Shown in pieces: positions 8,794 to 36,489 of a DNA stretch of 64,000 bases. The position numbers were made by a program, and so were the translations under genes. This stretch comes from an uncultured Candidatus Saccharibacteria bacterium (GTDB lineage Bacteria > Patescibacteriota > Minisyncoccia > Phycocordibacterales > UBA9973): NCBI GenBank assembly GCA_964440545.1, contig CAYTSO010000003.1, forward strand, positions 35,184 to 99,183, read 5' to 3'. How positions within the stretch are numbered: position 1 is the first letter of the stretch; every line of letters starts with the position of its first letter. The notes under the pieces were generated by a model that had not been told where the DNA came from, did not search any database, and worked only from the letters and a program-made list of their open reading frames with translations.

Positions 8794-8796
8794 GAT

Positions 8797-17284: not shown

Positions 17285-17336
17285 ATTTTTAAAATACTCC
17301 TTGAAAAAAGGAGTATTTTTGTTATAATGTATTTCT

Positions 17337-17915
17337 ATGACAGACAAAGAAGAAACAAAAGAAGAAAATTCCGAATCTGAAATTTTAGAATTTGAATTCA
17401 ACGAAGACGGAGAAGAAGATTTAAAGAAAACTTTGAAAAAATTCAGAGCTGATTTGAAGGCGTGCAAAAAAGAGAAGGAAGAATATCTAACTGGCTGGCA
17501 AAAAGAACGAGCAGAATTTGCTAATTACAAAAAACAAGAGGAAGACCGCAAGTCCGTTTTTTTTGAGGCGGTAAGGGAACGTATACTTATGCGTTTTTTA
17601 TCTGTTTTGGATAATTTTGACATGGCCTTTGCTAATCGCGAAGCCTGGGAGAAGGTAGATGAAAATTGGAGAAAAGGAGTAGAGTATATTTACTCTCAGA
17701 TGAGTGCAATATTTGAAGAGTATAACATAAAGCCAGTTGGGGAAAACGGGGAGAATTTTGATCCAAATATTCACCAATCTATGGAAATGGTAGAAACAAA
17801 CAAAAAAGAGCTAGAACACAAAATCGCAAGCGTGATCCAAAAAGGATACAAACTTGGAGATAGGGTCATTCGTCCTGCCAGGGTGAATGTGTATGAATAT
17901 AAGGAAAGTAAATAA
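17337..17915 (+). CDS. grpE: nucleotide exchange factor GrpE
   Basis: Acidic N-terminus, a coiled-coil region and a C-terminal beta domain (KGYKLGDRVIRPARVNV). Confidence 0.85.
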   Translation: MTDKEETKEENSESEILEFEFNEDGEEDLKKTLKKFRADLKACKKEKEEYLTGWQKERAEFANYKKQEEDRKSVFFEAVRERILMRFLSVLDNFDMAFANREAWEKVDENWRKGVEYIYSQMSAIFEEYNIKPVGENGENFDPNIHQSMEMVETNKKELEHKIASVIQKGYKLGDRVIRPARVNVYEYKESK

Positions 17916-18084: not shown

Positions 18085-18390
18085 ATGATATTTATTCATA
18101 CAAGTTGTGCAAAAATCGAGGAGGCAGAAAAATTAGGGAAAATGATTATTGAAAAAAAATTAGGTGTTTGCGTACATTATTGGCCGATTAAGTCAATGTT
18201 TAACTGGAAAGACAAATTTGAGAATGTAGAAGAAGTAATGATGGCAATCACTACCTTCGAGGGAAGGCTAGAGCAGGTAAATGATTTAATTTCCGAGCAC
18301 CATAGTTATTCTACCCCCATGATTGCCGGCATAGATGTGCGTAGGATCAATCGAGCCTACAAAGAATGGATGATGCAAGAGGTTTCCTAG
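18085..18390 (+). CDS. cutA: divalent-cation tolerance protein CutA
   Basis: 101-aa protein with a ..S...P.I.G..V......Y.EW pattern (HSYSTPMIAGIDV...YKEWM) typical of CutA1. Confidence 0.7.
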   Translation: MIFIHTSCAKIEEAEKLGKMIIEKKLGVCVHYWPIKSMFNWKDKFENVEEVMMAITTFEGRLEQVNDLISEHHSYSTPMIAGIDVRRINRAYKEWMMQEVS

Positions 18391-18441: not shown

Positions 18442-18987
18442 TCATTTTCCAAAAGTTTCAAATAAAAACTTTTTAGTTTCTTCGTCTACGAATTGAGAGA
18501 CGATTATCATCATCTCAGCGCCCAATCCCAAATCTTTTTTTATATTTACAAACAAATGCTCATAGGGGAATGGAGAAATCCAAGCAGAATTTTTTAAACA
18601 GACAAAGCCGGCTTTTTTTAATAAATAACGTAATGACTCGCGTTCGTTTTTTCTGCTCTCTGGAACATCCAATAAAATAATTCGCCAATAACCATCCCAG
18701 GAAATATTTGCTAAAGTTGTCTCATTTTCTAGCTTGAGAGTATTGATTTTTTTTCTTCCTTCCTTGGTAAGCCTGGCATATTCATTTTGAGGGGAAGAAA
18801 TGTTTTCAATTAGCCCAGCCTCTCTAAGTCCTTTTAAAGAGCGCGTGATGGCGTATTTGTCGTTTTTAGAACACTCCTGGGAGTTTATCTTATTTGTGAG
18901 TTCTGGTAGGGAAATTGCTGGTTTTTCGCTTAATATTTTCAATATTTTTTTAGAATATTGATTATTTTTTAGTAATTTTCTTGACAT
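18442..18987 (-). CDS. PaaX-like winged-helix transcriptional regulator (Cas2/VapD-fold C-terminal domain)
   Basis: N-terminal wHTH (ILKILSEKPAISLPEL), then WDGYWRIILLDVPESRKNERESLRYLLKKAGFVCLKNSAWISP, matching the PaaX_C W-x-G-x-W...SVW consensus. Divergent to dnaK. Confidence 0.5.
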   Translation of the reverse strand: MSRKLLKNNQYSKKILKILSEKPAISLPELTNKINSQECSKNDKYAITRSLKGLREAGLIENISSPQNEYARLTKEGRKKINTLKLENETTLANISWDGYWRIILLDVPESRKNERESLRYLLKKAGFVCLKNSAWISPFPYEHLFVNIKKDLGLGAEMMIIVSQFVDEETKKFLFETFGK

Positions 18988-19076: not shown

Positions 19077-20987
19077 ATGTCAAAAATTATTGGTATCGAT
19101 TTGGGTACAACGAATTCTGCTTTTGCTGTAATTGAGGGTGGAGAACCAAAAATTTTAGAAAATTCAGAGGGAACTCGCACAACTCCGTCGGTTATCGCGC
19201 TAGCCAAGAACGGAGATCGTCTGGTGGGTACCTTGGCAAAACGTCAATCTGTTACTAATCCTAAAAATACAGTTTTCCAGATAAAAAGATTTATTGGTCA
19301 TAATTTTGATGAACCGGGAGTTCAGAAGGACATCAAGGCAGTACCTTTTGAAGTTAGAAAATCAGAGAATGGTGGAATTGACGTGAAGATGGGAGAAAAA
19401 TGGTATCGACCAGAAGAAATTTCCGCCATGCTTTTGCAAAAAATGAAAGCAGATGCCGAGTCTCGACTAGGAGAAAAAATTACCGAGGCAGTTATCACTG
19501 TTCCAGCTTACTTTAATGATGCGCAAAGAAAAGCTACTAAGGATGCAGGACAGATTGCAGGGCTAGAAGTAAAGCGAATTATTAACGAGCCAACTGCAGC
19601 TGCATTGGCATACGGTTTTAATAAAAAGAAGAATGAAAAAATAGTAGTTTATGATTTTGGTGGAGGAACATTTGATATTTCTGTGCTAGAGGTAGGAGAA
19701 GATGTAATTGAAGTAAAATCGACTGACGGAGATTCGCACTTGGGAGGTAAAGACATCGATCAAAAAATAATGAACTGGTTGGCGGACGGATTTCAGAAGG
19801 AGCACGGGGTTGATTTACGAAAGGATCCTTTGGCCAAACAACGCTTAGATGATGCGGCCGAGAAAGCAAAAATAGAGCTGTCTACAGCAGTAGAATCAGA
19901 AGTAAATATTCCATTTATTACTTCTTCGGATGCTGGACCTCTTCACTTGGTACGTACAATGAAGCGTGCTGATCTAGAAGAACTTTGCAAAGAGTTTATT
20001 GACCGAGCAATGGAAATTAGCAAAAGAGCCATGGAAGCCTCTCCTTTCAAGATGGGCGACATTAATGAAATAATTTTAGTTGGTGGACAAACTCGAATGC
20101 CAATGATCCAAAAAAGAGTAGAAGAATTTTTTGGCAAAAAACCGCACATGGGAGTAAATCCGGACGAAGTTGTTGCACTGGGTGCTGCTGTGCAGGCAGG
20201 GGTTCTACAAGGGGATGTGAAAGATGTTCTCTTGCTTGATGTTATTCCATTGTCTCTTGGTATTGAAACTCTCGGAGGCGTGGCCACTAAATTGATTGAT
20301 CGAAATACCACTATTCCTAGTTCTAAATCGCAGGTATTTTCTACAGCAGCGGACAATCAAACTTCCGTTGAAATTCATATTGTGCAGGGAGAGCGTCCGA
20401 TGGCTTCTGATAATAAATCGCTGGGAAGATTTATTCTGGACGGAGTTCCGCCTGCACCTCGTGGCATGCCACAGATTGAGGTCTCCTTTGATGTGGACGT
20501 AAATGGAATTTTAAGTGTTACAGCAAAAGATAAAGCTTCTGGCAAAACTCAGTCAATTAGAATTGAGGCAAGTTCTGGACTAAAAGAAGAAGAAATTAAG
20601 AAAATGCAAGCCGATGCTGAAATCCACGCAGAAGAAGACAAAAAGAAAAAAGAAAATGTAGAGATAAAAAATACTGCAGAAATGCTCGTTTATACAGCGG
20701 AAAAAGCGCTAAAAGACAATGAAGCAAAAATTCCAGCTGATGTTAAAGAGGGTGTAAACGCGAAAATAACCGCCTTGCGCAGTGTAAAGGATGGCTCTGA
20801 CGGAGAAGCAATTAAAAAAGCCACCGAAGAGCTTTCTGCTGAAATGTCTAAAATTGGTGAAGCAATGGCAAAAGCTGGAGCAACACCGGGTGCAAATCCT
20901 ACCCCAGAGGAACAACCCTCAGAAGTCCATGATGCTGAATTTAAGGAAAAAAAGGAAGGAGAAGAAGGTGAATCACCAAAAGCATAG
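19077..20987 (+). CDS. dnaK: molecular chaperone DnaK (Hsp70)
   Basis: [30 protein letters not shown] signatures. 636 aa. Confidence 0.97.
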
Positions 20988-21002
20988 TTTATAAGACCCC
21001 AA

Positions 21003-21025
21003 AAGCCCCGCAAGGGGCTTTTTAG
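21003..21025 (+). terminator. intrinsic terminator after dnaK
   Basis: AGCCCC-GCAA-GGGGCT hairpin followed by TTTTT. Confidence 0.5.
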
Positions 21026-21056
21026 TTTAAGGAATGTTTGATATAATCTGTCTATC

Positions 21057-23135
21057 ATGGATCTTCCAGAAATACCTAGAAATAAAGATATAACTTATCT
21101 TGGGCTTACAACTTTTCGCGACAAAAATCAGCTTTTTGGTATTAAGCGCAAGGATCGACGTCAACACGTTTACGTGCTTGGAAAATCCGGAACCGGTAAA
21201 TCCGTACTCCTTTTCAATATGATTACCCAAAACATTCAAAACGGGGAAGGGGTTTGCGTGGTTGATCCTCATGGCGAACTTGTAGAAAGTGTCCTTTCTT
21301 CAGTGCCGGAAAATAGAGTAAAAGATGTTATTTATTTTAATCCAGCCGACACCGATTATCATGTTGGTTTTAATGTTTTAGAACTCATTGATCCTCAATA
21401 CAAACATCTAGTGGCTTCAGGTTTGATGGCAATTTTTACTAAAATTTGGGCGAATGCCTGGAGCGCTCGTATGGAATATATTTTAAATAATTGTATCTTG
21501 GCTTTACTGGATACCCCTGGAACCACCTTGCTTGGTATTCCGCGTATGTTGGTGGACAAAGATTATCGCCAGAAAATTATTACCAACTTGAAAGATCCTG
21601 TTATTAAAGCATTCTGGGTGCATGAATATGAGGCCTGGCAAGAAAAATTCCGTAATGAAGCCATTGCACCAATTCAAAACAAAGTTGGACAATTTCTCTC
21701 TACCTCAATCATTCGAAATGTCGTTGGTCAAACCAAGAGCACAATCAATATTTTTGACATAATGAATGAGGGAAAGATATTTTTGGTAAATGTCTCCAAG
21801 GGGCGCATTGGCGAAGACAATTCCGCGCTTTTGGGTGGAATGATTATTACTAAGATTCAATTGGCAGCAATGGAGCGCGTGCGTATTCCAGAAGAAGAAC
21901 GAAAAGATTTTTATTTATATGTAGACGAATTTCAAAATTTCGTAACAGATGCTTTTGCTGGCATTTTGTCTGAAGCTCGAAAATATCGACTAAATCTTAC
22001 TGTCGCGCATCAATATACCGCCCAGCTTGTTTCTGATAAAAGCTCAGCTGTGCGAGATGCGGTTTTCGGGAACGTTGGAACAATGATCGTTTTTCGGGTT
22101 GGCTCTGATGATGCCGCTTTTCTGGAACAAGAATTTGATCCTGAATTTACTCCGTCGGATATAGTGAATTTGCCGAACTATAAGATTTACCTGAAGCTAA
22201 TGATAGACGGGGTGACCTCCAGGCCATTTTCAGCGAAAACCTTGCCCCCGATGACTAAGGCAGATAATAAAAAAGTAGCTGAAGAAGTTATTAGATCCTC
22301 TAGGGATCTTTATTGCAGGCCTAAAGATGTAATTGAAAGGGAAATCAATGAATGGAGCGGTATGTCCTTAGGAGATGACAATATTTCTTCTTTTGGCGGG
22401 ATGGAAAAATTCAAAATTATTTGTTCGCTCTGCGGGCTGGAAAAGACAGTTCCGTTCAAGCCAGAGCCAGGCAGATCAGTTTATTGTAGGGAATGCATTG
22501 CAAAAATAAAATCAGGTGAAGTTAAGATAAAGAAGGGAGGGGATGATCAGTTTAAATACGATGAGTCTACTTTTTTCAAGCCCTTGGCTGATTTGGGTAT
22601 TGAGTTTGACCAGAAGAGAGTTGAAAAAAATAGAGAAATAAATAAAGGGAAAAAAATAATACAAGACACTAAACCGATTGCTCCAACGAGCAGGCCTGGC
22701 GTGTTTGGAGCCATTAAAAAAGCATTTATTAAAAAAGAGAAGCCAAAAGTAGTTTCTGGGGACGGAAAAAATTTAGCATTAAAGGAAGCTCTGAATAAGG
22801 TGATTCCAAAAGAAACAATCTCAGAGCCATCACCGAAACATGCTTCGCTAGATATTCTTAAAAAACAGACAGAAGGGGTAGACAAAAATATTTCAACAAA
22901 TAAGCCTATACATACTGGTGGGGATCGTGCCGCTAGTTTAGAGGAAATGAATAAATTGAAAGATTTGATTTCTACTGCTGTCGCGGGGCAAGCAGAAAAA
23001 ACCCCCAACCAGAGCAAGTTCGGTACGGGGCAGGCAGAGAAGAAAGAAATTCCGCCTTCTGCGCCGACTCAAAAAGAGACAGGTAAACCCAAGGAAGTGC
23101 CAGAGGATGTTCTAAAAAAGATTTTAGAAGGGTGA
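21057..23135 (+). CDS. soluble TraG/VirD4/TraD-like (type IV coupling-protein family) P-loop ATPase with C-terminal zinc ribbon and K/E-rich tail (paralog 1)
   Basis: Walker A VLGKSGTGKS, VVDPHGEL, Walker [10 protein letters not shown], and a TraG-D_C-like SEARKYRLNLTVAHQYTAQL...FGNVGTMIVFRVGSDDA segment. No N-terminal TM helices. C-terminal CSLCG...CRECI zinc ribbon. Confidence 0.65.
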   Translation: MDLPEIPRNKDITYLGLTTFRDKNQLFGIKRKDRRQHVYVLGKSGTGKSVLLFNMITQNIQNGEGVCVVDPHGELVESVLSSVPENRVKDVIYFNPADTDYHVGFNVLELIDPQYKHLVASGLMAIFTKIWANAWSARMEYILNNCILALLDTPGTTLLGIPRMLVDKDYRQKIITNLKDPVIKAFWVHEYEAWQEKFRNEAIAPIQNKVGQFLSTSIIRNVVGQTKSTINIFDIMNEGKIFLVNVSKGRIGEDNSALLGGMIITKIQLAAMERVRIPEEERKDFYLYVDEFQNFVTDAFAGILSEARKYRLNLTVAHQYTAQLVSDKSSAVRDAVFGNVGTMIVFRVGSDDAAFLEQEFDPEFTPSDIVNLPNYKIYLKLMIDGVTSRPFSAKTLPPMTKADNKKVAEEVIRSSRDLYCRPKDVIEREINEWSGMSLGDDNISSFGGMEKFKIICSLCGLEKTVPFKPEPGRSVYCRECIAKIKSGEVKIKKGGDDQFKYDESTFFKPLADLGIEFDQKRVEKNREINKGKKIIQDTKPIAPTSRPGVFGAIKKAFIKKEKPKVVSGDGKNLALKEALNKVIPKETISEPSPKHASLDILKKQTEGVDKNISTNKPIHTGGDRAASLEEMNKLKDLISTAVAGQAEKTPNQSKFGTGQAEKKEIPPSAPTQKETGKPKEVPEDVLKKILEG

Positions 23136-23178
23136 ATCCGGAAATAGATTTTGAGATAGATCAGGAAATTGTAAAAAT

Positions 23179-24921
23179 ATGGAAACCAGAACATGTCAAA
23201 ATTGCAAAAGTGAATTTGTGATAGAGCCGGAGGATTTTAATTTTTATGAAAAGATTAAAGTTCCACCGCCAACTTTTTGTCCGGAATGCCGAACGATACG
23301 CAGATTGTGTTTTCGGAATGAGATGTCTTTGTTTAAAAGACCTTGTAATTTTCATGGTCATAAGGAAATTTTAATCTCCGCTTTTCATCCAGATGAAAAA
23401 TTAGTGGTTTATGATTTAAAAAGTTGGTGGGGGGATGGATGGAACCCATTAGATTTTGGCCGTGAATATGATTTTTCAAAATCCTTTTTTGCTCAATGGA
23501 GGGACTTTAGGGATAGTTTTCCTTTACAGGCTCTTTCAAATTCTAATGCGGTAAATAGTGATTATTGTAACGTAGCGGATGATAGCAAAAATTGTTACTT
23601 GATTTCTGGGTCAGAATCCTGCGAACAGACAATGTATTCTAATAGAATAATTAAGGTAAAAGACTCATTAGACTTGTATATAGTTAATCGCTCGGAGCTT
23701 TGCTATGATGATGTTTATTGCTTTGATTGCTACCGTGTTCTTTATTCTATAAATTGTAAAAATTGCGTTGATTCTTATTTTTTATATGATTGCGTGAATT
23801 GCGTAAATTGTTTTGGTTGTAGTAATTTAAGAAACAAATCATATTGTCTCTGGAATCAGCAGTTGACCCAAAAAGAATATAAAGAAAAGATCAAGGGATT
23901 AAACCTAAACAGCAGACAGGCAATTTTAAATTTTAAAAAGGAGTTTAATAAATTATACATTAATTCTATTCATCGTTTTGCTAATCAGGTTAAAACAATT
24001 AATTCAACCGGGAACAATTTAATTGGTGCAAAGGATTGCAAATACTGTTTTGACCTAGATGGTCAAATTGAAAACTCAAAAAATGTTCATTGGGGAGGGT
24101 TAAGCATAAAAGATGTTTATGATGGTGGTCCGGGGATTGGAAATACCGAGCTTGCGTATGAAATGTTTGACACCGGACTCGGTAGTCATCGTAGTCTGTG
24201 CACAAGCGTGGTATATGGTTCGAGTGATGTAGAGTATTCGTTCAATTGTTATAATTCTTCGAATCTTTTTGCTTGTTTTGGGTTGAGAAGTAAAAAATAT
24301 TGTATTTTTAATAAACAATATTCTAAAGAGGAATATGAAAGGATGGTTAATAAAATTAAGGACCAAATGAATGAAATTCCTTATATAGACAAAAACAATC
24401 GAACATATAGATATGGCGAATTTTTTCCAATTGAGTTATCTCCGTTTGCCTATAATGAGACAGTGGCGCAGGATTACTTTCCAATAACGAAAGAAATTGC
24501 TGAAAAAATGGGTTATAAATGGAGAGATAAAATAAAAAATGAATACAACGTCACTTTGAATTCAAAGAACATACCAGATAACCTTAACGAAACAAATGCT
24601 TCAATCTTAAAAGAAGTGATTGAGTGTGCGAATAATGGAAAAGACAACGGTAGGTGTTTGGGGGTATTTAGGATTTTAGAGAACGAGTTAAATTTATACA
24701 AAAGAATTGGTGTCCCTGTACCAAATTTATGTTTTGCTTGTCGCCATGCCGAACGGTTAAGTAAGCGAACCTCTCTTAAGCTCTGGCGTCGTCAGTGTAT
24801 GTGTGAAAAAGAGGGGCATGGTCACAAGGGAAGGTGTCAAGTAGAATTTGAAACCAGCTACGCCCCAGATCTTCCAGAAATAGTTTATTGTGAAAAGTGT
24901 TATCAGAAGGAAGTATATTAG
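23179..24921 (+). CDS. cysteine-rich multi-zinc-ribbon protein, unrecognised family (paralog 1)
   Basis: 580 aa. N-terminal C-x2-C..(20)..C-x2-C ribbon (CQNCKSEF..FCPECR). Central arrays of C-x2-C/NC-x2-C repeats with two copies of a C.GLR.K.YC..N.Q...EEY unit. C-terminal CFACRH...RQCMCEKEGHGHKGRC...YCEKCY. Not assignable to a family from the sequence. Confidence 0.65.
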   Translation: METRTCQNCKSEFVIEPEDFNFYEKIKVPPPTFCPECRTIRRLCFRNEMSLFKRPCNFHGHKEILISAFHPDEKLVVYDLKSWWGDGWNPLDFGREYDFSKSFFAQWRDFRDSFPLQALSNSNAVNSDYCNVADDSKNCYLISGSESCEQTMYSNRIIKVKDSLDLYIVNRSELCYDDVYCFDCYRVLYSINCKNCVDSYFLYDCVNCVNCFGCSNLRNKSYCLWNQQLTQKEYKEKIKGLNLNSRQAILNFKKEFNKLYINSIHRFANQVKTINSTGNNLIGAKDCKYCFDLDGQIENSKNVHWGGLSIKDVYDGGPGIGNTELAYEMFDTGLGSHRSLCTSVVYGSSDVEYSFNCYNSSNLFACFGLRSKKYCIFNKQYSKEEYERMVNKIKDQMNEIPYIDKNNRTYRYGEFFPIELSPFAYNETVAQDYFPITKEIAEKMGYKWRDKIKNEYNVTLNSKNIPDNLNETNASILKEVIECANNGKDNGRCLGVFRILENELNLYKRIGVPVPNLCFACRHAERLSKRTSLKLWRRQCMCEKEGHGHKGRCQVEFETSYAPDLPEIVYCEKCYQKEVY

Positions 24922-25613
24922 ATATTATTTACAGCTCGGTAGGTAGCGACGATGGCGGCAGTTTCGCCACGGAGAGTTAGATTTCCCAGGGAGGCGACGG
25001 TATAACTGGAATTTTTAGCGAACTCAATTTCTTTTTCCGTGAAGCCACCCTCGGGGCCAACAAAAATATTAGCTTTTTTTGCTTTCTTGTCTGGTGAGTA
25101 TTTTTTTCCATTTAAATCAAAGATGATTTTTTCATCTTCCATACTTCCATTAGCTAATGCATCTTTGAAATTTAAAATCGGGGATAATTCTGGAACAGTA
25201 TTTCTCCCGCATTGTTCGCTTGCCTCTAAAATTATTTTTTTCAAACGTTTTTCATTCAACCCAGTTTTTACAGTTCTCTCGGTGATAATCGGTGTTATCG
25301 ATGAGACCCCAACCTCTACTGCTTTTTGTACAGCTAGTTCAAAATTTTCTTTTTTTAGAATTGCCAAATATAAATTTACTGCTTTTTGCGCGTCTTGTTT
25401 TTGGCTGATTTTTTCAATTTTGCAGATGATTTCATTTTTTGAGGCAGAAAATATGCTTGCTTCCGCCTCGACACCCCTGCCATTTGAAAGGATAATTTTT
25501 TCGCCAATTTTAAGCCTTAAAACAGCTTTTATTTGCCTGATCGTTTCAGGATTTAAAATTTTTACTTCCTCTTTCAATAAATCATATTCGCCGATAAATC
25601 TATGTAATTTCAT
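24918..25613 (-). CDS. rsmE: 16S rRNA (uracil1498-N3)-methyltransferase RsmE
   Basis: PUA-like N-terminus (RLKIGEKIILSNGRG) and SPOUT C-terminus with IFVGPEGGFTEKEIE. Commonly linked to dnaJ. Confidence 0.8.
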   Translation of the reverse strand: MKLHRFIGEYDLLKEEVKILNPETIRQIKAVLRLKIGEKIILSNGRGVEAEASIFSASKNEIICKIEKISQKQDAQKAVNLYLAILKKENFELAVQKAVEVGVSSITPIITERTVKTGLNEKRLKKIILEASEQCGRNTVPELSPILNFKDALANGSMEDEKIIFDLNGKKYSPDKKAKKANIFVGPEGGFTEKEIEFAKNSSYTVASLGNLTLRGETAAIVATYRAVNNI

Positions 25614-25654
25614 GCTTAATATGATATACTAGAAAGGCAAATCATCAAAATTTT

Positions 25655-27160
25655 ATGTCTAAGCCGAATCGAGTGCAAATAATAAAATATGCTCCACCTC
25701 CGCCAGAATTGCCTGTGTATGGAAAAGTAAAGCCGGAAGAGGTATCCTTTTTCGGACGTACAAATTACGTGGCTTCCTTGGAAGAAAAAAAATTTATTTT
25801 CGGAATCAAGCGAGTTGATCGTCGTAGGCATCTTTATATAATCGGAAAATCAGGGGTTGGAAAAACTAAACTACTAGAACTGCTCTTGCGTCAAGATATC
25901 ACTTATAATCACGGCTTATGCTTGATAGACCCACACGGAGACGTGATAGATGCAATGCTTGATTATATCCCCAAGGAAAGAGCAGAAGACGTTTGCATAA
26001 TTGATCCTTCAGACGTAAATTTTCCAGCTTCCTTTAATCCATTGGCAAACGTGGATCCAATGTTTAAGTTTCAATTAACCCAAGGATTGATTGAGGTATT
26101 CCAAAAGCAATTCGGGGCGAACTGGACACCTCGTCTTGAGCACGTTTTTCGTTTTACTTGTTTAGCTCTTTTGGATTATCCACATGCCACGATGCGGGGA
26201 ATGATTTCAATGTTAACGGATAGAAATTATAGACAAAAAGTTGTGGAATATATTACAGACGACATGGTTAAAAGATTCTTCGCTATTGAATTCGCGGATT
26301 GGTCAGAAAAATTTGATACCGATGCCATCATTCCATTGGTAAATAAACTGGGTCAATTCCTTTCGGATCCATTACTTCGAAATATTTTTGGACAAAAAGA
26401 AAATAAAATTGATATGAGCAAGCTGATGAATGAAGGAAAAATCATCCTTATTAATCTTTCTAAGGGTCGTCTGGGTGAAGAGAACTCTTCCTTTCTCGGT
26501 TCCATGTTTTTAACAAAAATAAAACAAGCTGGAATGGAGCGAGCCGCTATCCCAGAAAAAGATCGAGTAGATTTTTACCTTTACGTGGATGAGTTTCAAA
26601 ACGTAGTGACTCAAACTTTTGAAAATATTTTGTCAGAAGCTAGAAAGTATGGATTGAATTTAACTATTGCTCATCAATATGTCGGCCAAATAATTACCAA
26701 GGTTCATCAGGCAGTGTTGGGTAATTGCGGAAGTATTATCACCTTCAGGGTAGGTGGGGAGGATGCAGTAAAAATGAAACCAGAATTTGCTCCTATCTTC
26801 GACGTGAAGGATATGATAAATCTTGCAGTTGGAGAAATTTATGTAAAAATGACAATAGATGGAGAATCTTATGATCCATTTTCTGCGGAAACGCTCAGGG
26901 TGCTTCCCCCTACACATTCTTCTTGTAGAGAAGAAATTATCGAAGCTTCACGCAGGAAATACTCAATATCCAAAGATTCGGCGGCAAAACTTATCGCCGA
27001 GGAAGAAGCCTCAATTATTCGAAGTGCCGAGGAAAAAGCTATTATTGAAGGAAAAAAGAAAGGAAAGGCTAAATCCAGTGAAACTGGAACGCCCGGCGCT
27101 TCTGAGGAAACGCTTAGGGAAGAAGAAAAAACTTCACAAGAAGCTGAACCTATGATATAA
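25655..27160 (+). CDS. soluble TraG/VirD4/TraD-like P-loop ATPase (paralog 2, no zinc ribbon, acidic tail)
   Basis: Same architecture as 21057..23135: [47 protein letters not shown]...[16 protein letters not shown]. Roughly 45-50% identical to paralog 1 by eye. Confidence 0.65.
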
Positions 27161-27168
27161 CCCCATAT

Positions 27169-28275
27169 ATGAAAAAGGATTACTATGAAATTTTAGGAGT
27201 AAAAAAAGACGCGTCTAAAGAGGAAATCAAAAAAGCCTTTTATAAAATGGCGCACAAATATCATCCCGACAAAGGGGGCGGAAACGAGGCAAAATTCAAA
27301 GAAGTAAATGAAGCTTATCAAGTATTGTCTAGCGACGAAAAGCGTTCAAAATATGATCAATTTGGATCTGGCTTCGAAAACATGGGAGCTCAAGGGGGAT
27401 ATGGCAGGGGAGGCTTTGATGGCTTTGATTTTTCTGGCTTTTCCACCAGAGGCGGACAAGCGAATGGAGGAATGGAATTTGACTTTGGTAATCTAAATGA
27501 TATTTTTAGCGATTTTTTTGGAGGCGGAATGGGTGGAGGAAGACAACAGGCAAGACGAGGCAGGGATATTTCTACTGAAATCCAAGTTTCTTTTGCCGAT
27601 GCAGTTTTTGGCACAACTAGAAAAATTTTAATCACTAAGACTTCTAGGTGTTTAACCTGTGATGGTTCTGGGGCGAAGGCTGGTACAGGTATGGAAACTT
27701 GTAAAAAGTGTAATGGGCAAGGAAAAATTCGCGAACAAAAAAGAACTATTTTTGGAATTATTGCGAATACAAAAACCTGCGAGACCTGTCTGGGTACAGG
27801 AGAGGTGCCAAAAGAAATCTGCGATAAGTGCAAGGGTAAGGGTATTTTGCGTCGAGAAGAAGAGGTGCCTATTGTTATTCCAGCTGGAATTCGCGATGGT
27901 GAAATGGTTCGAATGGCCGGTTACGGAGAAGCAGTTTCCAAAGGAACGACAGGGGATTTATATATAAAAATAAATGTGACACAGCATCCTGTATTTAAGC
28001 GTGCTGGCAATGATTTGGTAATGAATTTAGACCTGAAGCTCACCGAAGCTCTTTTGGGGGCAAAATACACGATTCAAACCCTAGACGGAGAAATTGAAGT
28101 AAAAATTCCAGAAGGTGTCTCTATAAATGAAATTCTTCGCGTGCGGGGTAAGGGTGTTCCAGTGTCAAAAAGCAAGCGCGGTGATCTTCTCATAAAACTA
28201 AACATAAAACTTCCATCAAAACTTTCCCGCAAATCTCGTGAAATTATAGAGGAATTAAAGAAAGAGGGAATTTAG
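27169..28275 (+). CDS. dnaJ: chaperone DnaJ
   Basis: J domain (DYYEILGV...HPDK), G/F-rich region, four CxxCxGxG zinc-finger repeats and a C-terminal domain. Confidence 0.95.
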
Positions 28276-30029
28276 TGATGAAAGCACAAACTAAAAATTG
28301 TCAAAATTGCAAAAAAGACTTCGTCATTGAGACGGAGGATTTTAATTTCTATGAAAAAATCAAAGTTCCTCCACCGACTTGGTGTCCAGAATGCAGAATG
28401 ACAAGGCGATTTGCCTGGAGAAATGAAATTAATTTGTATAAAAGAAAATCTAGTCTATCCGGAGAAGAAATTATTAGCCAATATTCGAAAGATGTTGTTT
28501 TTCCAGTTTTTTCTGTAAAAGAGTACTATTCTAGAGAATGGGATATTCCTTTTGTGGATTATTCATTTGATAAAGGTTTTTTTGAGCAATTTTTTGCACT
28601 TCAACAAATAACGCCACATTGCGCGCTTTTAACTGACTTGCAATCAATGGAAAATGGTAGTATTTATCAGAATTCAGCAAGCCGAAACAAGAATTGCTAT
28701 ATGGTTAGCGCTTCAGGAGACAACGAAGATTCTCTGTATGGAAACAATCTAGACTATTCAAAAAACTCAATTGATTGCTTTTGGTGTAGGAGAACGAATT
28801 ATTCCTATGAGTCAACCGATTCGGTGGATTGCAATATGATCTTTTTTTCCGAGGAGTGTAAGCAGTGTGTTGATTGTTGGTTTTGTTTCGAATGCCGAAA
28901 TTGCGTAAACTGTTTTGGCTGTGCGGAGCTTAGAAACAAATCCTACTGTTTTTTCAATGAACAGCTTTCCCAGGAAGATTATAGTAAAAAAATTCAGGAT
29001 TTTTTTGAGAATCTGACAAGAGAAAAAATCGGTGAGATAAAAGATAAATTTAAGAAATTTAGTAATACTTTTCCTAGAAAATATGCCCATGTTGATTCAA
29101 ATAGTAATTATACTTCCTCTGGGGATTATATAATTAATTCAAAAAACGTTGTTAGAGGTTTTTTTATTCATGATAGTGAAAATGTTCGTTATTGCTCAAA
29201 AATAATTAAAGGCAGTGATTGCTGGGACACTAGTGATTGGGGAGATCCGATTGAGCTTTGCTACGAGAGTATAACAATAGGCAAGGGTGCTAATAAAATA
29301 TTTTTTTCTAATAACTGCTGGCCAGAATGTAGAGAAATACAGTATTGTGATTCTTGTTCAAGCTCTCACCACTTATTTGGTTGTATTGGTCTAAAAAATA
29401 AATCCTACTGCATCCTTAATAAGCAGTACGCTAAAGAAGAATACGAAGAACTAGTGCCAAAAATCATTCAGCATATGAACGATATGCCTCATATAGATAG
29501 TAAGGGTAGGGTATATAAATATGGAGAATTTTTCCCCGTAGAGCTTTCACCCTTTTTTTATAATGAAACAATCGCACAAGATTATTTTTCACTTTCTAAA
29601 AACCAGGCCCTTTTTTGTGGTTTTGGCTGGAAGGAAGAGGAAGAAAAAAACTACACGATAGACATTAAAAAGGGGCAAATACCTACAATTATTGATCAGG
29701 TCAATGAAGATATAATAAATAAGGTTTTAGAATGTGAACACGAAGGAAATTGCAACGAAAAGTGTACGAAGGCTTTTAGAATAGTAGAAGCAGAATTTCG
29801 ATTTTATAAAAAAATGAATTTACCTTTACCACATTTGTGCCCTAACTGTAGACACTACCAAAGACTGAAACAACGTAATCCATTAAAGCTTTGGCACCGA
29901 CAATGTATGTGTGAAAAAGAAGAGCACGGACATAGGGGTCGTTGCCCAATAGAATTTGAGACTTCTTATGCGCCCGAACGACCGGAGATTGTTTATTGTG
30001 AAAAGTGCTATCAGAAGGAAGTATATTAA
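28275..30029 (+). CDS. cysteine-rich multi-zinc-ribbon protein, unrecognised family (paralog 2)
   Basis: 584 aa. N- and C-termini nearly identical to paralog 1 (CQNCKKDF..WCPECR and ...RQCMCEKEEHGHRGRC...YCEKCYQKEVY). GTG/ATG start overlaps the dnaJ stop (TAGTGATG). Confidence 0.65.
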   Translation: MMKAQTKNCQNCKKDFVIETEDFNFYEKIKVPPPTWCPECRMTRRFAWRNEINLYKRKSSLSGEEIISQYSKDVVFPVFSVKEYYSREWDIPFVDYSFDKGFFEQFFALQQITPHCALLTDLQSMENGSIYQNSASRNKNCYMVSASGDNEDSLYGNNLDYSKNSIDCFWCRRTNYSYESTDSVDCNMIFFSEECKQCVDCWFCFECRNCVNCFGCAELRNKSYCFFNEQLSQEDYSKKIQDFFENLTREKIGEIKDKFKKFSNTFPRKYAHVDSNSNYTSSGDYIINSKNVVRGFFIHDSENVRYCSKIIKGSDCWDTSDWGDPIELCYESITIGKGANKIFFSNNCWPECREIQYCDSCSSSHHLFGCIGLKNKSYCILNKQYAKEEYEELVPKIIQHMNDMPHIDSKGRVYKYGEFFPVELSPFFYNETIAQDYFSLSKNQALFCGFGWKEEEEKNYTIDIKKGQIPTIIDQVNEDIINKVLECEHEGNCNEKCTKAFRIVEAEFRFYKKMNLPLPHLCPNCRHYQRLKQRNPLKLWHRQCMCEKEEHGHRGRCPIEFETSYAPERPEIVYCEKCYQKEVY

Positions 30030-30032
30030 TCT

Positions 30033-30623
30033 ATGTTTCCAGAACAAATTATTATTGTTGGAGTTTTGATAAATCTGCTCTGTTCTCTTTGGTATATCAA
30101 AAATATTTTAAGAGGGGATACTAGGCCGAATCCGGTTTCTTGGTTTATTTGGTCCTTGGCTCCATTTATTGGAGTATTTTTGCAATTAAAGGCTGGGGCC
30201 ACTTGGTCAGTGATGGGAGTATTCATGGCCGGTTTTGCCCCACTTCTAGTAGTAATTTTTTCCTTATTTAAAAAAAATGCCTTTTGGAAAATACAATCTT
30301 TTGATATTTTCTGTGGGCTTTTTTCTGTACTTGCTTTAGTTATTTATATAATAACAAGTAACCTATGGATTTCCATTCTTTTTGCTATTACCAGTGATTT
30401 TCTTGCTTACATTCCAACCTTTGTAAAATCATGGAAGAACCCAGAAAGTGAAACAAGTTCTGTATACTTGGGAGGAATAATTAACAACATCATCGCGATG
30501 CTGATTATTAAAAATTGGGCATTTGCCGTTTACTCTTTTCCGTTATATCTAGTGTTAGTGAATTTAGCCGAGGTGGCTGTGATTTACCGTAAAAAGTTTT
30601 TGAGAATAAAAATTATTTCTTAA
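30033..30623 (+). CDS. polytopic membrane protein, unknown function
   Basis: 196 aa with about six hydrophobic helices. No motif recognised. Confidence 0.45.
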   Translation: MFPEQIIIVGVLINLLCSLWYIKNILRGDTRPNPVSWFIWSLAPFIGVFLQLKAGATWSVMGVFMAGFAPLLVVIFSLFKKNAFWKIQSFDIFCGLFSVLALVIYIITSNLWISILFAITSDFLAYIPTFVKSWKNPESETSSVYLGGIINNIIAMLIIKNWAFAVYSFPLYLVLVNLAEVAVIYRKKFLRIKIIS

Positions 30624-33961: not shown

Positions 33962-34288
33962 ATGAAGAAAGAGGAATTTGCAGTAATACATACAGGCGGA
34001 AAACAATATAAAGTCTCTGAAGGAGGCGTTGTTTCTATTGAGAAAATAAAAGGCGAATTCAAAAAAGGAGATAAATTGTCTTTCGATAAAGTCATGCTAG
34101 TGGATGATGGCAAGGATACAACTATCGGTACCCCTTATATTAAAGGAGCAAAAGTAGAAGGGGAGTTAATAGAAATCGGACGATCTAAAAAAGTACTGGT
34201 GGTAAAATACAAACAAAAATCTCGTTATCTAAAACGCAACGGCCACCGTCAACCGTTTTTCAAAGTAAAAATTAGCTCGATAAAATAA
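33962..34288 (+). CDS. rplU: 50S ribosomal protein L21
   Basis: FAVIHTGGKQYKVSEGGVVSIEKI...KVLVVKYKQKSRYLKRNGHRQPFFKVKI. Confidence 0.9.
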   Translation: MKKEEFAVIHTGGKQYKVSEGGVVSIEKIKGEFKKGDKLSFDKVMLVDDGKDTTIGTPYIKGAKVEGELIEIGRSKKVLVVKYKQKSRYLKRNGHRQPFFKVKISSIK

Positions 34289-34290
34289 AA

Positions 34291-34316
34291 AATCCCGTTT
34301 GACGGGATTTTTTATT
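34291..34316 (+). terminator. intrinsic terminator after rplU
   Basis: AATCCCG-TTTG-ACGGGATT hairpin followed by a T-run. Confidence 0.6.
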
Positions 34317-34410
34317 TGTGTTTGCATTTTGCATGTTTTTGTATAGTATAAAATTTGGTGGACAAAAATTGCCCTTTGACATATGTGCAAACCCCAGAAA
34401 GGAGTTGACC

Positions 34411-35832
34411 ATGCCAAATCTAATGCTTCCGGGGAACCCCCGGTACCAACCGAAGGAACTTCAAGCGTTCTTCGGCTACGACAGATTGTTTGAGGCTGTC
34501 GCTAGTGTCGAGATCGCGACCATGCAAACCTTGGCCGAGATCGGTATCATCCCTGCGGCGGACATCACCGTGCTTACTTCGGTGATCAAAGAAGAACTTT
34601 TTGCTATCTCGACGAGCGAAGTTGACGAGCTTGAGCGGAGAGTAACCAAGCACGACATCCGCGCTTGGGTGCGAATTGCCCAGGGCAAAATGGAGCCCGG
34701 GCTTCGTCGGTGGGTCCACGTGCCGCTGACGAGCTACGACGCACTCGACACTGCTCGTGCGGTGCAGTTCGTGCAAGCTCACAACAATGTGGTGAAGAGA
34801 TTCACAAACAAAGTGATCAGTCACTTTGTGGATCAGGTCTACCGTTTTGCTGACCAACCGCAGATTGGCCGAACACACGGCCAGCACGCCCTTCCTATCA
34901 CGGTCGGATTCTGGTTCGCAACAATTTTGAACCGGATTCTCTCCAACATCCAAGCGGCCAACGCTGCTGCGGAAAAACTGGTCGGGAAGATCTCAGGAGC
35001 CGTGGGCGTGTATAACGCTCAGGTTGGTCTTGGTATTTTGGCTCGTTGCGGAAGCAAAACCTTCGAGGAGCGTGTGCTCGAGAAGCTCGGCCTTAAGCCC
35101 GCGCCGATCAGCACGCAGATTCTCCCTCCGGAGCCACTCGCGGACTACTTGTTTGCTTGTGTTAAGCTCTCTGCTACGTTCGGTCAGTTCGGACTCGATG
35201 GACGGCATCTTATGCGTACCGAGATTGCCGAACTCGGGGAACCTTTCGAGTCGGGTCAGGTTGGTTCTTCGACCATGGCCCACAAACGAAACCCTATCAA
35301 CTTTGAAAACTTGGAGGGAACCTGGAAGAAGAACAAGGCTGAGTTCTACAAGGTGCTCGAGTGCATGACGAGCGAGCACCAGCGGGACTTGGTTGGTAGT
35401 TCAATCACTCGCGATTTCCCGACGATCGTCGTGAACGTCGTCAACCAGCTGAATACTCTGCTTCGAGAAGCGGGAGGCAAACCGTTTATCTCTCGCATCT
35501 CGGTCGACAAGGCTGCTTGTGAGCGGAACCTCAAAGCTCAGGGCGATGCTATTCTTGCAGAGCCGATTTACATTGCTCTTCAAATGGCTGGTTATGAAGG
35601 CGATGCTCATGAGCTCGTGAACCATGTGGCTTTGCCGTACGCGAAGAAACACAACATGTTGTTGCTTGCGGCGACGCGCCAAGTGCTTTCGGATTGCAAC
35701 AGCATCGTTTGGAAAAACATTCCGAGTGACACTGTTCAGATGCTTGAGGATTCCGAGCGCTACACCGGCAACGCGGCAGAAAAGGCGTACGAAATCGCCA
35801 AAGCCGCCGAAGCGTATCTCAAGACGAAGTAG
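34411..35832 (+). CDS. purB: adenylosuccinate lyase (class II fumarate-lyase family), high-GC
   Basis: GSSTMAHKRNPINFEN lyase signature with PurB-type NP(I/V)(D/N)FEN. AAAGGAG RBS 7 nt before the ATG at 34411. GC content is far above the flanks. The track ORF start at 34318 is an artefactual extension. Confidence 0.85.
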   Translation: MPNLMLPGNPRYQPKELQAFFGYDRLFEAVASVEIATMQTLAEIGIIPAADITVLTSVIKEELFAISTSEVDELERRVTKHDIRAWVRIAQGKMEPGLRRWVHVPLTSYDALDTARAVQFVQAHNNVVKRFTNKVISHFVDQVYRFADQPQIGRTHGQHALPITVGFWFATILNRILSNIQAANAAAEKLVGKISGAVGVYNAQVGLGILARCGSKTFEERVLEKLGLKPAPISTQILPPEPLADYLFACVKLSATFGQFGLDGRHLMRTEIAELGEPFESGQVGSSTMAHKRNPINFENLEGTWKKNKAEFYKVLECMTSEHQRDLVGSSITRDFPTIVVNVVNQLNTLLREAGGKPFISRISVDKAACERNLKAQGDAILAEPIYIALQMAGYEGDAHELVNHVALPYAKKHNMLLLAATRQVLSDCNSIVWKNIPSDTVQMLEDSERYTGNAAEKAYEIAKAAEAYLKTK

Positions 35833-35850
35833 TAGAAACATCACAAACTC

Positions 35851-35880
35851 AAAAGGAGGGGCTTCGGCCTCTCCTTTTTA
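35851..35880. terminator. bidirectional intrinsic terminator between purB and recR
   Basis: AAAA-GGAGGGGC-TTCG-GCCTCTCC-TTTTT, with an A-run and T-run on either side. Confidence 0.6.
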
Positions 35881-36489
35881 CTGTCTATTTTTTAGGGCGT
35901 TTTTGAGAGTGTCATTGTCGGAATATTCTAATTCAGTGCCGGTAGAGAGACCTTTACCGAGGGAAGAAATTTTTATGTCCGACTTTTCGCAAAGGCTTTT
36001 TAATTGTTCTCGTACGTATGCATCAGTATGGTCGCCCTGTGGACTGATAGAAAAAGCTAAAATTATTTCCTTCAATTCTTTTTCACGCTCAATTTTCTTT
36101 TTTAATTCTTCAATTCGTACTCGACTTCTGGTGTTTTTTTCAACAATCGGGACCAGTCCACCCAGAACAAAATATTTTCCATGATAGGCGTGACTCTTTT
36201 TTACGCTTTCTAAATCAGAATCTTTTTCTACTACCATCAACACAGAGGAATCAGTGTGTTGATTCGCGCAAATCTCACAGACTTTTTCTTTTTTGGAATT
36301 TAAAATAAAGAATCGATAACATTCCTTGCATTGCGCTGTTTCTTTTTTTAGTTCAGAAATCAAGGAAGATAAATTTTCACCATAGGCGGGAGTTTTGGCC
36401 ATTAAAAAATAGACAAAACGTCGCGCTTGTCGTTCTCCGATACCCGGGAATTCCTTAAAAATTTCTGTTAGTTTATCTATGATGTCCAT
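35878..36489 (-). CDS. recR: recombination protein RecR
   Basis: FPGIGERQARRFVYFL (HhH), a C4 zinc finger (CKEC...CEIC) and a Toprim domain. Confidence 0.9.
   Translation of the reverse strand: MDIIDKLTEIFKEFPGIGERQARRFVYFLMAKTPAYGENLSSLISELKKETAQCKECYRFFILNSKKEKVCEICANQHTDSSVLMVVEKDSDLESVKKSHAYHGKYFVLGGLVPIVEKNTRSRVRIEELKKKIEREKELKEIILAFSISPQGDHTDAYVREQLKSLCEKSDIKISSLGKGLSTGTELEYSDNDTLKNALKNRQ

Follow-up and report, generated by a model that had tools for sequence, protein, structure and literature searches.

The question raised by this locus is why two ATPases resembling the coupling proteins of type IV secretion systems (T4SSs) lie, together with two large cysteine-rich proteins, among the chaperone genes dnaK and dnaJ of an uncultured member of the Patescibacteria. 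The locus is part of a 64,000-nucleotide stretch of contig CAYTSO010000003.1, which is referred to here as the window. An earlier sequence-only reading of this DNA had described two paralogous gene pairs, ATP1-Cys1 and ATP2-Cys2, and had attributed them to an undescribed system. The evidence presented below suggests that the locus holds parts of an exapted, split machine similar to a type IV coupling protein (T4CP), in which the tails of the ATPases would recruit a zinc-ribbon protein family; we give this reading a probability of about 0.4. Coordinates were based on the open reading frames (ORFs) of the window and their translations, and families were assigned by Pfam and NCBIfam profile searches. 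The genes of the locus are the following.

19077-20987, forward strand: dnaK (Hsp70), named from its translation and from syntenic orthologues that are 63-80% identical.
21001-21026, forward strand: terminator-like hairpin 3' of dnaK, AAAAGCCCC-gcaa-GGGGCTTTT, then a T-run.
21057-23135, forward strand: ATP1, a VirD4/VirB4-class NTPase of 692 aa without transmembrane (TM) segments.
23179-24921, forward strand: Cys1, a 580-aa member of the Cys-rich zinc-ribbon/β-solenoid family (the solenoid being predicted).
24918-25613, reverse strand: rsmE, 16S rRNA methyltransferase gene (Pfam Methyltrans_RNA, 2e-40), convergent with Cys1.
25655-27160, forward strand: ATP2, a TM-less VirD4/VirB4-class NTPase of 501 aa.
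27169-28275, forward strand: dnaJ of type I, with J domain, CxxCxGxG zinc domain and C-terminal domain (Pfam DnaJ, DnaJ_CXXCXGXG and DnaJ_C).
28275-30029, forward strand: Cys2, the second member of the Cys family, 584 aa.
30033-30623, forward strand: TM196, a polytopic membrane protein of 196 aa with 40 hydrophobic windows and no family match in Pfam, which closes the ATP2-dnaJ-Cys2 unit.

The two gene pairs, their order, coordinates and junctions, and the motifs quoted for them were all confirmed in the translations, the paralogues being 44% identical (ATP1 and ATP2 over 441 aa, E = 2e-136; Cys1 and Cys2 end to end, E = 1e-169). The Walker A motif is GKSGTGKS in ATP1 (nt 21180-21203, from aa 42) and GKSGVGKT in ATP2 (nt 25844-25867, from aa 64). 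It is accompanied by DPHGE in ATP1 or DPHGD in ATP2, by the Walker B motif YVDEFQN in both, and by a SEARKY-type, TraG-D_C-like segment that reads SEARKYRLNLTVAHQYTAQ in ATP1 and has a counterpart in ATP2; the Walker motifs and those flanking them were invariant among 65 sequences. The T4CP hallmarks proposed for the ATPases were recovered above the Pfam gathering scores. ATP1 reached 48.1 bits for TrwB_AAD_bind (cutoff 20.5; E = 1e-12), 36.3 bits for T4SS-DNA_transf (cutoff 20.1) and 25.9 bits for TraG-D_C (cutoff 22), ATP2 reached 29.4, 24.0 and 26.8 bits for the same families, and both also exceeded the gathering score for DUF87. Both ATPases were far below all the curated NCBIfam cutoffs for T4CP, VirB4 and HerA families, which speaks against T4CP membership; the best T4CP scores were 52-53 bits for SXT_TraD (cutoff 366) and 45-48 bits for CD1115 (cutoff 250). 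TrwB was the sole solved structure detectable by sequence from the ATPases. The AF2 models are of moderate confidence, and that of ATP2 (pLDDT 69.7, pTM 0.76) matched several structures about equally well, its predicted fold being no nearer to TrwB than to VirB4 or DptH. Given the T4CP matches in Pfam, the NCBIfam scores below cutoff and the evenly matching folds, we place ATP1 and ATP2 in the VirD4/VirB4 class of the FtsK-HerA superfamily, with no family standing out clearly as their closest sister. An identity as HerA was rejected: the 41-63 residues before Walker A are too few for a HAS-barrel, only the P-loop core matched (DUF87), the NCBIfam model HerA_antiphage scored 20.6 against a cutoff of 800, and no nuclease gene is a neighbour. 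No TM segment was found in ATP1, ATP2, Cys1 or Cys2 (Kyte-Doolittle maximum 1.13; no window above 1.6), as had been noticed earlier for the ATPases, and a TM domain in the same polypeptide, as in T4CPs, is absent from both.

Related loci, identified here by L numbers, were collected in two surveys, one centred on the Cys genes (79 genome loci with 201 Cys genes) and one centred on the ATPases (80 metagenome loci, on contigs that carry no taxonomy). Their ORFs were called mechanically, and many titles of third-party metagenome-assembled genomes (MAGs), such as 'uncultured Candidatus Saccharibacteria', look generic. ATP1 and ATP2 subtypes were both found in Nomura-, Staskawicz- and Liptonbacteria-type loci, so their duplication is old and the two are ancient paralogues. 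The ATP1 orthologues are 58-78% identical and share the architecture of nucleotide-binding domain (NBD), zinc finger and tail. The finger, CxxC-x17-CxxC, follows the NBD (nt 22404-22505, aa 450-483) and scored 45.4-51 bits with PF23477 (zf_Tbcl_2; cutoff 27, E = 6.5e-12) and 47 bits with TIGR04272 (cutoff 36); PF23477 was present in all 120 ATP1 orthologues among the matches listed. Small proteins of Methanosarcina mazei with a domain of this type bind zinc, as measured by inductively coupled plasma mass spectrometry (PMC12704099). After the finger, the ATP1 tail is basic, Lys/Pro-rich and disordered (pI 9.6); it bears a conserved C-terminal helix, EVPEDVLKKILE, and a conserved C-terminal EVPEDVLKKILEG at nt 23094-23132, and ends in EVPEDVLRKILE within the window's lineage.

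ATP2 is the more conserved of the two, with orthologues 84-93% identical. It exceeded DnaK in all 10 loci holding both (83-90% versus 77-80%), a level of conservation suggestive of hub-like constraint. Its tail is acidic and disordered and carries an invariant C-terminal SQEAEPMI (nt 27134-27157); the tip is EPxI-COOH, and EP[MLI][IV] is kept across lineages. When 36 ATP2 and 29 ATP1 orthologues were compared, the tail linkers were hypervariable and the tips invariant. A hypervariable linker that ends in fixed residues is the signature of a tethered docking peptide, and we infer that the tips of both ATPases act as such peptides. A third, long subtype of 790-1164 aa, in which an N-domain is fused to the ATPase, was found in L007 (13062-15827), L024 (5207-7579), L077 (9532-12276), L110-L111, L116, L132, L135, L141-L142, L146 and L159, and occurs as two tandem copies in L111, L116, L132 and L146.

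The commonest neighbour in the ATPase-centred loci was a protein of ~450-490 aa with N-terminal TM helices and the C-terminal motif EELA(T/S)(I/L)(W/Y/F)H(F/L)P...PPxxLP. A member of this anchor family, NDOM, is encoded in the window about 15 kb from the ATPases, next to a gene for a DNA-binding protein.

3168-4205, forward strand: sigma70 region 4 plus HARE-HTH DNA-binding protein, 345 aa (Pfam Sigma70_r4, 3e-12; HARE-HTH, 1.5e-10).
4255-5673, forward strand: NDOM, a two-TM membrane N-domain protein of 472 aa, recognised by its hydrophobic segments and by homology to proteins upstream of the ATPase.

The two TM helices of NDOM lie within aa ~22-63, its motif reads EELATLWHFP and its C-terminus ASPPSNLPT. 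It had no Pfam match; its homologues include the proteins encoded just before the ATPase in L126 (E = 2e-51) and L034 (E = 2e-36). Among 57 NDOM homologues in the related loci, 27 were encoded directly upstream of an ATPase (25 before the ATP1 type, with gaps mostly of 4-40 nt, and 2 before ATP2) and 20 were fused to one. The fused set includes L103-L107, where proteins of the ATP2 type end in EEPLI and Cys genes are adjacent. The PPxxLP junction motif is found at both the anchor C-terminus and the ATP2 N-terminus, the latter retaining it as the PPPPELP of the fused forms. The phage profile phrog_5156 (824 positions) resembles NDOM in its N-terminal part (2e-8) and ATP1 (1e-62) and ATP2 (8e-52) in its C-terminal part, and aligned over its full length with the fused proteins of the candidate phyla radiation (CPR) at 1e-75 to 1e-78. 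This combination of fusion ('Rosetta stone') and neighbourhood evidence suggests that the TM-less ATPases work with a two-TM partner, so that, on genomic evidence, a dedicated membrane partner as expected of a T4CP is found; anchor and ATPase together would match the topology of the T4CP transmembrane domain (TMD). TMD-less T4CPs with a separate membrane partner, such as TraJ/TraI of pIP501, are a recognised class (PMC7431656). The word 'soluble' used in the sequence-only reading holds for the ATPase chains themselves, which are without TM segments, and is misleading in view of the two-TM partner at 4255-5673 and its fusion to the ATPase in 20 relatives.

Of 34 homologues of the sigma70-region-4/HARE-HTH gene, 31 immediately preceded the anchor gene or the gene of a fused ATPase, and the order in L034 is HARE-HTH, anchor, ATP1, five Cys genes, CutA and ATP2. 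In the window's lineage, the ATPase genes would then have been relocated to the dnaK locus without the HTH-anchor pair, which kept its place. A phage relative of the fused N-domain-ATPase, gp27.4, was seen in Bacillus phage SPO1 (L160, 92636-95356). It lies between the partition protein gp27.9 and gp27.3, annotated as 'replication initiation by nicking', whose start overlaps the end of gp27.4; from this context, the phage branch of the family may have a function in DNA processing.

We next consider the Cys proteins, which the sequence-only reading could place in no named family. That statement stands: no Pfam or NCBIfam family reached threshold, and the PDB gave nothing by sequence or by Foldseek. 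There was also no match in phage genomes (tblastn), nothing in PADLOC and nothing useful in PHROGs, and the literature on PF13451 and on cysteine-rich or zinc-ribbon families in Patescibacteria does not describe the family. It is nevertheless large, with at least 7,956 clusters at 90% identity, all unnamed or hypothetical; a profile search gave 4,556 representatives at 50% identity, all of 545-625 aa, and for 2,017 the E value was 1e-30 or lower. The named records all belong to the Parcubacteria group, and orthologues are 55-67% identical. The proteins consist of ~6% Cys and 14% aromatic residues and have neither a signal peptide nor a TM segment.

In Cys1, the modules are an N-terminal treble-clef (nt 23185-23343), solenoids A (nt 23536-23898) and B (nt 24004-24363), a second treble-clef (nt 24625-24798) and a C-terminal zinc finger (nt 24799-24918). 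The treble-clef-like zinc module at aa 3-55, which is basic, recurs at aa 492-540 (hhalign 99.4%, E = 3e-21), and the central region is duplicated, aa 130-240 corresponding to aa 278-392 (hhalign 99.95%, E = 1e-37), each copy closing with FGCxxLRNKxYCIxNKQYxKEEY. Conservation is also high in the segment YGEFFPxELSPFxYNET. Cys residues recur every 9 positions, as in a ladder, and in Cys2 eight of them follow one another at intervals of 3 residues (aa 195-216). The central region is predicted, at the confidence of the models, to be a duplicated β-solenoid; a test for membership of the left-handed β-helix/hexapeptide-repeat class came out against it. The C-terminal finger ends in YCExCYQxEVY and resembles the ATP1 finger (hhalign 74.8%, E = 2.6e-5). 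With PF23477, the sole match for both paralogues, it scored 15-16 bits (E = 0.01-0.02; cutoff 27), and the N-terminal module scored 21.7-22.2 bits with PF13451 (zf_Tbcl), below the cutoff of 24. The internal zinc module had no Pfam match, and a sequence search found no PDB relative of the zinc module. The Cys family thus probably has the same type of zinc finger as ATP1. Its zinc modules are rich in Arg and basic (pI 9.4-10), and a comparison of 183 paralogues showed conserved end modules and variable middles. The idea that Cys proteins are DnaJ-like zinc-finger co-chaperones was dropped, there being no match to PF00684 (CxxCxGxG), for which the true DnaJ at 27169-28275 gives 7.8e-15.

Is the association of these genes more than an accident of one contig? 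The arrangement of ATPase, Cys and dnaK-dnaJ genes was found again in other genomes, and the same gene order recurs in many independent assemblies, so it is not due to chance. The order PaaX (reverse strand), dnaK, ATP1, one or more Cys genes, optionally rsmE (reverse strand), ATP2, dnaJ, one or more Cys genes and TM196 was seen in L001, L014, L018, L050, L055 and L075. ATP2 followed by dnaJ occurred in 11 Cys-centred loci and 6 further metagenome loci, TM196 is syntenic at the operon end in L001, L014, L018, L039, L050, L075, L080, L081, L082 and L096, and grpE is directly followed by a Cys gene in L016, L051, L055 and L060. The place of some Cys orthogroups is fixed, be it behind ATP1, DnaJ or GrpE. 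The Cys genes form tandem arrays of up to 9 genes (L074), with 5-8 in L026, L033, L043 and L053; neighbours within an array are only 30-50% identical, so the arrays are ancient.

The ATPase and Cys genes are not, as had been claimed, always paired. L081 has the order dnaK-ATP1-ATP2-dnaJ-TM196 with neither a Cys gene nor rsmE, which makes the ATPases the constant element inserted into the chaperone operon, to which Cys genes are added variably. The ATPase family is far wider than the Cys family, and most ATP1-like ATPases of other lineages have no Cys gene nearby. Most Cys genes, moreover, follow another Cys gene or an unrelated gene: the upstream gene of the 201 was Cys in 80 cases, unrelated in 69, an ATPase in 19, GrpE in 4, DnaJ in 4 and CutA in 3. 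Among the 79 Cys-centred loci, 33 contain an ATPase and 20 contain DnaK, DnaJ or GrpE. The Cys family tracks the ATP2 subtype only. A Cys gene lay within 10 kb of 15 of 22 EPxI-tailed ATPases versus 13 of 69 of the other subtypes (Fisher p = 3e-5, kinship ignored), and a same-strand Cys gene lay within 800 nt in 9 of 11 versus 7 of 30 cases with at least 3 kb of flank (p = 0.001, kinship likewise ignored). ATPase-Cys linkage in the absence of Hsp70 linkage was seen in L034, L043, L044, L053, L100 and L103-L107.

The minimal arrangement does not include rsmE, which is a lineage-specific passenger: it is missing between ATP1/Cys and ATP2 in L081, L083 and L003. A link to cysteinyl-tRNA synthetase or to rsmE was dropped, both reflecting lineage synteny only; cysS, perM, the agmatinase gene and rplU near the loci are likewise plain lineage synteny. 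VirB4-like genes beside the Cys arrays were also considered and not retained, the large unlabelled neighbours looking housekeeping by inspection only, without a Pfam check. An ORF at 8260-9957 on the reverse strand of L017 has, judged by eye, a PilB/GspE-like N-terminus and lies divergently beside a lone Cys gene, an arrangement seen in only 2 loci. Two loci appear under proteobacterial names: L050 (JAMPXW010000002.1, 'Burkholderiales bacterium'), with ATP1, Cys, rsmE, ATP2, dnaJ and TM196, and L021 (CAYZAZ010000094.1, 'Gammaproteobacteria bacterium'), a typical Parcubacteria locus. Both contigs are probably mis-binned.

Transcription units were read from the sequence only. The ATP2 stop is 8 nt from the dnaJ ATG, the GTG start of Cys2 shares 1 nt with the dnaJ TAG, and TM196 begins 3 nt after the Cys2 stop. 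An alternative Cys2 ATG lies 3 nt downstream of the GTG (28278) and is preceded by a better ribosome-binding site, GAGGG, which makes it the more likely start. The ATP1 stop and the Cys1 ATG are separated by 43 nt. Beyond dnaK, the terminator-like hairpin is a GC-rich inverted repeat in which 9 of 9 bases are complementary, and TATAAT is present at 21043-21048, 8 nt ahead of the ATP1 ATG; ATP1-Cys1 is therefore probably driven by its own promoter. Given the dnaK hairpin, only ATP2-dnaJ-Cys2-TM196 (spacers of 8, at most 2, and 3 nt) appears to be packed like an operon among the genes here. Co-transcription with the chaperone genes, as put forward earlier, is thus plausible for dnaJ within this unit and doubtful for dnaK.

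A shared heat-shock operator was dropped, no common inverted repeat being found upstream of grpE, dnaK, ATP1 and ATP2. A perfect 12-nt inverted repeat, AAAATACTCCTT-N5-AAGGAGTATTTT, lies between rpsI and grpE (17291-17319) and overlaps the best promoter-like site of grpE (TTGAAA at 17301, TATAAT ending at 17328). It could be the rpsI terminator or an operator; it is unlike CIRCE and has no copy upstream of dnaK, ATP1 or ATP2. The divergent pair of PaaX (reverse strand) and dnaK (forward strand) is kept in ~12 related loci, and its spacer in the window is 89 nt long and AT-rich, with several short palindromes. The PaaX-like protein may be a local heat-shock regulator. The genes preceding dnaK are as follows.

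17337-17915, forward strand: grpE, an ORF named from its translation and from syntenic orthologues that are 63-80% identical.
18085-18390, forward strand: CutA1-like gene (Pfam CutA1, 4e-25).
18442-18987, reverse strand: gene for a PaaX-like winged-helix regulator (Pfam PaaX_M, 1e-19), divergent from dnaK.

A CutA1-type gene recurs in L033, L034, L043, L044, L053, L072, L082, L085, L087, L090, L098, L100 and L137, and adjoins ATP2, ATP1 or Cys arrays in lineages without dnaK linkage; a metal connection to the zinc-rich Cys family is possible. The rest of the window is core genome, with BipA, AlaS, RpoA, DnaB, several aminoacyl-tRNA synthetases and a penicillin-binding protein (PBP) assigned by Pfam, and tRNA and Rfam scans of the 64 kb gave zero matches. 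Three other features were observed. A 525-aa ORF at 59027-60604 on the forward strand joins a LexA DNA-binding domain, an S24 autopeptidase and a complete C-5 cytosine DNA methyltransferase (Pfam 7e-16, 8e-29 and 2e-93), an unusual fusion of an SOS-type repressor and a methylase. GC content is 0.49 at 34001-36000 versus about 0.36 elsewhere, coinciding with a Lyase_1/adenylosuccinate-lyase-like gene (34318-35832) that may have been acquired horizontally. A 430-aa ORF at 11670-12962 on the forward strand, beside an FtsA-like gene, has no Pfam match at E ≤ 1e-5.

What, then, might the machine do? From the sequence features described, a role of the ATPases in substrate handling or translocation is plausible. 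In the split coupling-protein-like machine that we favour, ATP1 and ATP2 would presumably be hexameric ring NTPases, tethered to the membrane through the separate two-TM anchor, which in turn would be partnered with the sigma-r4/HARE-HTH DNA-binding protein. The C-terminal peptides of the ATPases, in ATP1 together with the zinc finger, would recruit the basic zinc-ribbon end modules common to the Cys family, with a docking logic analogous to that of F TraD-TraM or of Legionella DotL with DotN/IcmSW. The variable β-solenoid middles might supply different specificities or be cargo. The motor would spend ATP and, in the presumed direction of transfer, hand a macromolecule to a membrane conduit. 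The cargo may be the Cys proteins, which DnaK/DnaJ/GrpE would keep from folding, or else DNA or a nucleoprotein. Protein cargo would be favoured because of the Hsp70 context, which is specific to one lineage, and because of a multicopy family whose ends are conserved; nucleic-acid cargo would be favoured because of the CPR-wide HTH partner, the basic tail, the relatedness to DNA motors and the nickase neighbour in SPO1. A wider proposal, that HARE-HTH protein, anchor, ATPase and the Parcubacteria-specific Cys family make up a translocation system of their own, derived from coupling proteins and independent of conjugation, in which Hsp70 would help to deliver the Cys proteins at the envelope as cargo or as exchangeable adaptors, seems to us unlikely, though worth stating.

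Several observations weigh against the split-machine reading. The window has no virB4, relaxase or other conduit gene; among its ORFs of at least 500 aa, 0 of 10 were VirB4 or relaxase, each being assigned to another family. There was no ATPase within 10 kb of the Cys array in 46 of the 79 Cys-centred loci, and the association p values do not allow for shared ancestry. The dnaK/dnaJ linkage is confined to one lineage; in other lineages, CutA, or the HARE-HTH and anchor genes, take the place of dnaK/dnaJ as neighbours. The Cys orthologues evolve more slowly than typical effectors do, and the Cys C-terminus is a folded zinc finger, unlike the known T4SS signals, which are unstructured. Of 5,713 VirD4-type homologues reported for 2,918 Patescibacteria genomes, 148 are near virB4, and in Ca. 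Southlakia the T4CP homologue is non-essential while the T4SS is essential (PMC12102498).

The same evidence can be read in other ways. The HTH protein, the two-TM anchor and the ATPase could form a membrane-tethered translocase for DNA or nucleic acid, serving uptake, nucleotide scavenging or chromosome handling, with the Cys family at most a nucleic-acid-binding accessory and dnaK/dnaJ incidental. The closest families are indeed DNA motors or DNA-dependent ATPases (TrwB, DptH, HerA, FtsK), ATP1 has a zinc finger and a Lys/Pro-rich tail of pI 9.6, the zinc modules of the Cys family are Arg-rich and basic, the sigma-r4/HARE-HTH gene is the most constant neighbour (31/34), and in SPO1 the genes for a partition protein and a nicking replication initiator flank gp27.4. 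VirB4, however, is an equally good fold match and is not a DNA motor, the ATP2 tail is acidic, and it would be left unexplained why a family with up to 9 tandem copies tracks ATP2 and why, in one lineage, an ATPase or Cys gene comes after each of grpE, dnaJ and dnaK; we regard a DNA translocase as unlikely on balance. Somewhat more improbable is a purely cytosolic function in proteostasis, in which the ATPases would be Hsp70-coupled, ClpB-like unfoldases or assembly factors that load, remodel or disassemble the Cys proteins, themselves redox- or metal-sensitive holdases or a polymer, with no membrane translocation. It would account for the interleaving of these genes with the whole Hsp70 system in the Nomurabacteria-like lineage (dnaK-ATP1, and ATP2-dnaJ at 8 nt), for the grpE-Cys and dnaJ-Cys orthogroups at fixed positions, for Cys proteins with ~6% Cys and 14% aromatic residues within a predicted β-solenoid and without signal peptide or TM segments, and for the recurrence nearby of CutA, a divalent-ion tolerance protein. 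An anchor fused or adjacent in 47 relatives points instead to action at the membrane, other lineages keep the ATPase-Cys linkage without the Hsp70 linkage, and a terminator-like hairpin ends dnaK.

There may also be no functional link at all, the Cys paralogues having expanded independently at permissive intergenic core sites and their proximity to the ATPases being inherited synteny. In keeping with this, Cys genes follow an ATPase in only 19 of 201 cases, against 80 after another Cys gene and 69 after an unrelated gene, L081 has no Cys gene, the cysS, perM, agmatinase-gene and rplU neighbours are plainly lineage synteny, and the association statistics ignore phylogenetic non-independence. 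Yet the association holds across differing gene orders, including the fused ATP2-type proteins of L103-L107 and Staskawicz- and Liptonbacteria-type loci, and concerns a single ATPase subtype; the zinc fingers of ATP1 and of the Cys family are probably of one type, and tandem neighbours that are only 30-50% identical indicate arrays both ancient and maintained. We consider an absence of any link about as improbable as the proteostasis role. An anti-phage defence pair of a HerA-like ATPase and a Cys effector or sensor, comparable to HerA-Sir2, HerA-DUF4297, DptH or MADS, is very improbable. PADLOC matches to mad8 (2e-14 and 4e-11) and weak ones to HerA and DndH are what would suggest it, and these hits are weak and partial; HerA_antiphage stays at 20.6 against 800, and the Cys family has no PADLOC match. 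Conservation and synteny led us to reject a defence system: few proteins of these genomes are as conserved as ATP2 (84-93%, higher than DnaK), and the genes lie in fixed core synteny within an entirely housekeeping window instead of a variable island.

A large part of bacterial diversity is accounted for by the Patescibacteria, a group with tiny genomes whose members have mostly not been cultured. The sequence-only reading had called the system undescribed. In part it is not, as orphan VirD4-type homologues, about two per genome, were published in 2025, with the remark that their exaptation "cannot be ruled out" (PMC12102498). The remainder appears undescribed: in the literature we found neither the two subtypes with their tail peptides nor the split anchor, nor any account of the HTH partner, of the Cys family or of the Cys-ATP2 linkage. 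The open question of exaptation thereby gains a testable shape, namely two subtypes with tail peptides, an anchor supported by fusion and a constant DNA-binding neighbour, to which Parcubacteria add a partner family with no Pfam or NCBIfam match. Arrays of up to nine Cys genes of ~1.75 kb amount to ~17 kb at one locus, a heavy load for a genome well under 1 Mb (records of 694 kb and 808 kb). If the Cys proteins are cargo or adaptors, they would be prime candidates for factors of host interaction or of nutrient or DNA acquisition; if there is a translocation system of its own, they would be candidates for the factors by which these episymbionts act on their hosts. If they are neither cargo nor adaptors, ATP2 would still be among the most conserved proteins of these organisms, without a known role.

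Comparison with known systems places the locus as follows. The partners in DotL-DotN/IcmS/W/LvgA and F TraD-TraM share no sequence or fold likeness with the Cys proteins; here, the partner is a 580-aa protein in many paralogues, and its binding is presumed. Unlike HerA-NurA, HerA-Sir2, HerA-DUF4297, DptH of Dnd and mad8 of MADS, the ATPases have no HAS-barrel and no nuclease or Sir2 partner, and in contrast to such HerA/FtsK pairs their genes are housekeeping-like in conservation and synteny and lie outside defence islands. The strongest profile match overall, phrog_5156 (SPO1 gp27.4, phage G gp156), combines N-domain and ATPase in one chain, at an identity of no more than 22-27%; its neighbours in the phage are a partition protein and a nicking initiator, and phages have no Cys genes. 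With regard to the zinc modules PF23477, TIGR04272 and PF13451, the ATP1 finger is a clear member, whereas those of the Cys family are below the gathering thresholds; they are the only Pfam-like parts of that family and flank a large β-solenoid instead of standing alone. The predicted central fold is similar to that of β-solenoids such as left-handed β-helix acyltransferases, γ-carbonic anhydrases, antifreeze proteins of insects and plants and the curli protein CsgA, and the 9-residue Cys ladder recalls the Cys-rich antifreeze β-helices; apart from these weak likenesses to zinc modules and β-solenoids, no relative of the Cys family is known. With T4CPs (VirD4/TrwB), the ATPases share a P-loop NBD with GxxGxGK[ST], DPxGE, DEFQN and SEARK, a predicted helical insertion that separates Walker A from Walker B, an N-terminal anchor with two TM helices, which is present in trans here and fused in relatives, and a disordered C-terminal tail with a partner-binding tip, the binding being assumed here by analogy. 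They differ from T4CPs in having no linkage to virB4, relaxase or oriT, in NCBIfam scores of about 50 bits versus cutoffs of 250-650, in a ~380-aa extra domain between TM helices and NBD, and in being two chromosomal paralogues in core synteny, one of them above DnaK in conservation. Membership of the T4CPs proper fails on the same-chain TMD, on T4SS/relaxase linkage and on the curated family cutoffs. Collectively, judged by its NBD signature and its membrane partner, the machine would appear to work most like a T4CP with adaptors.

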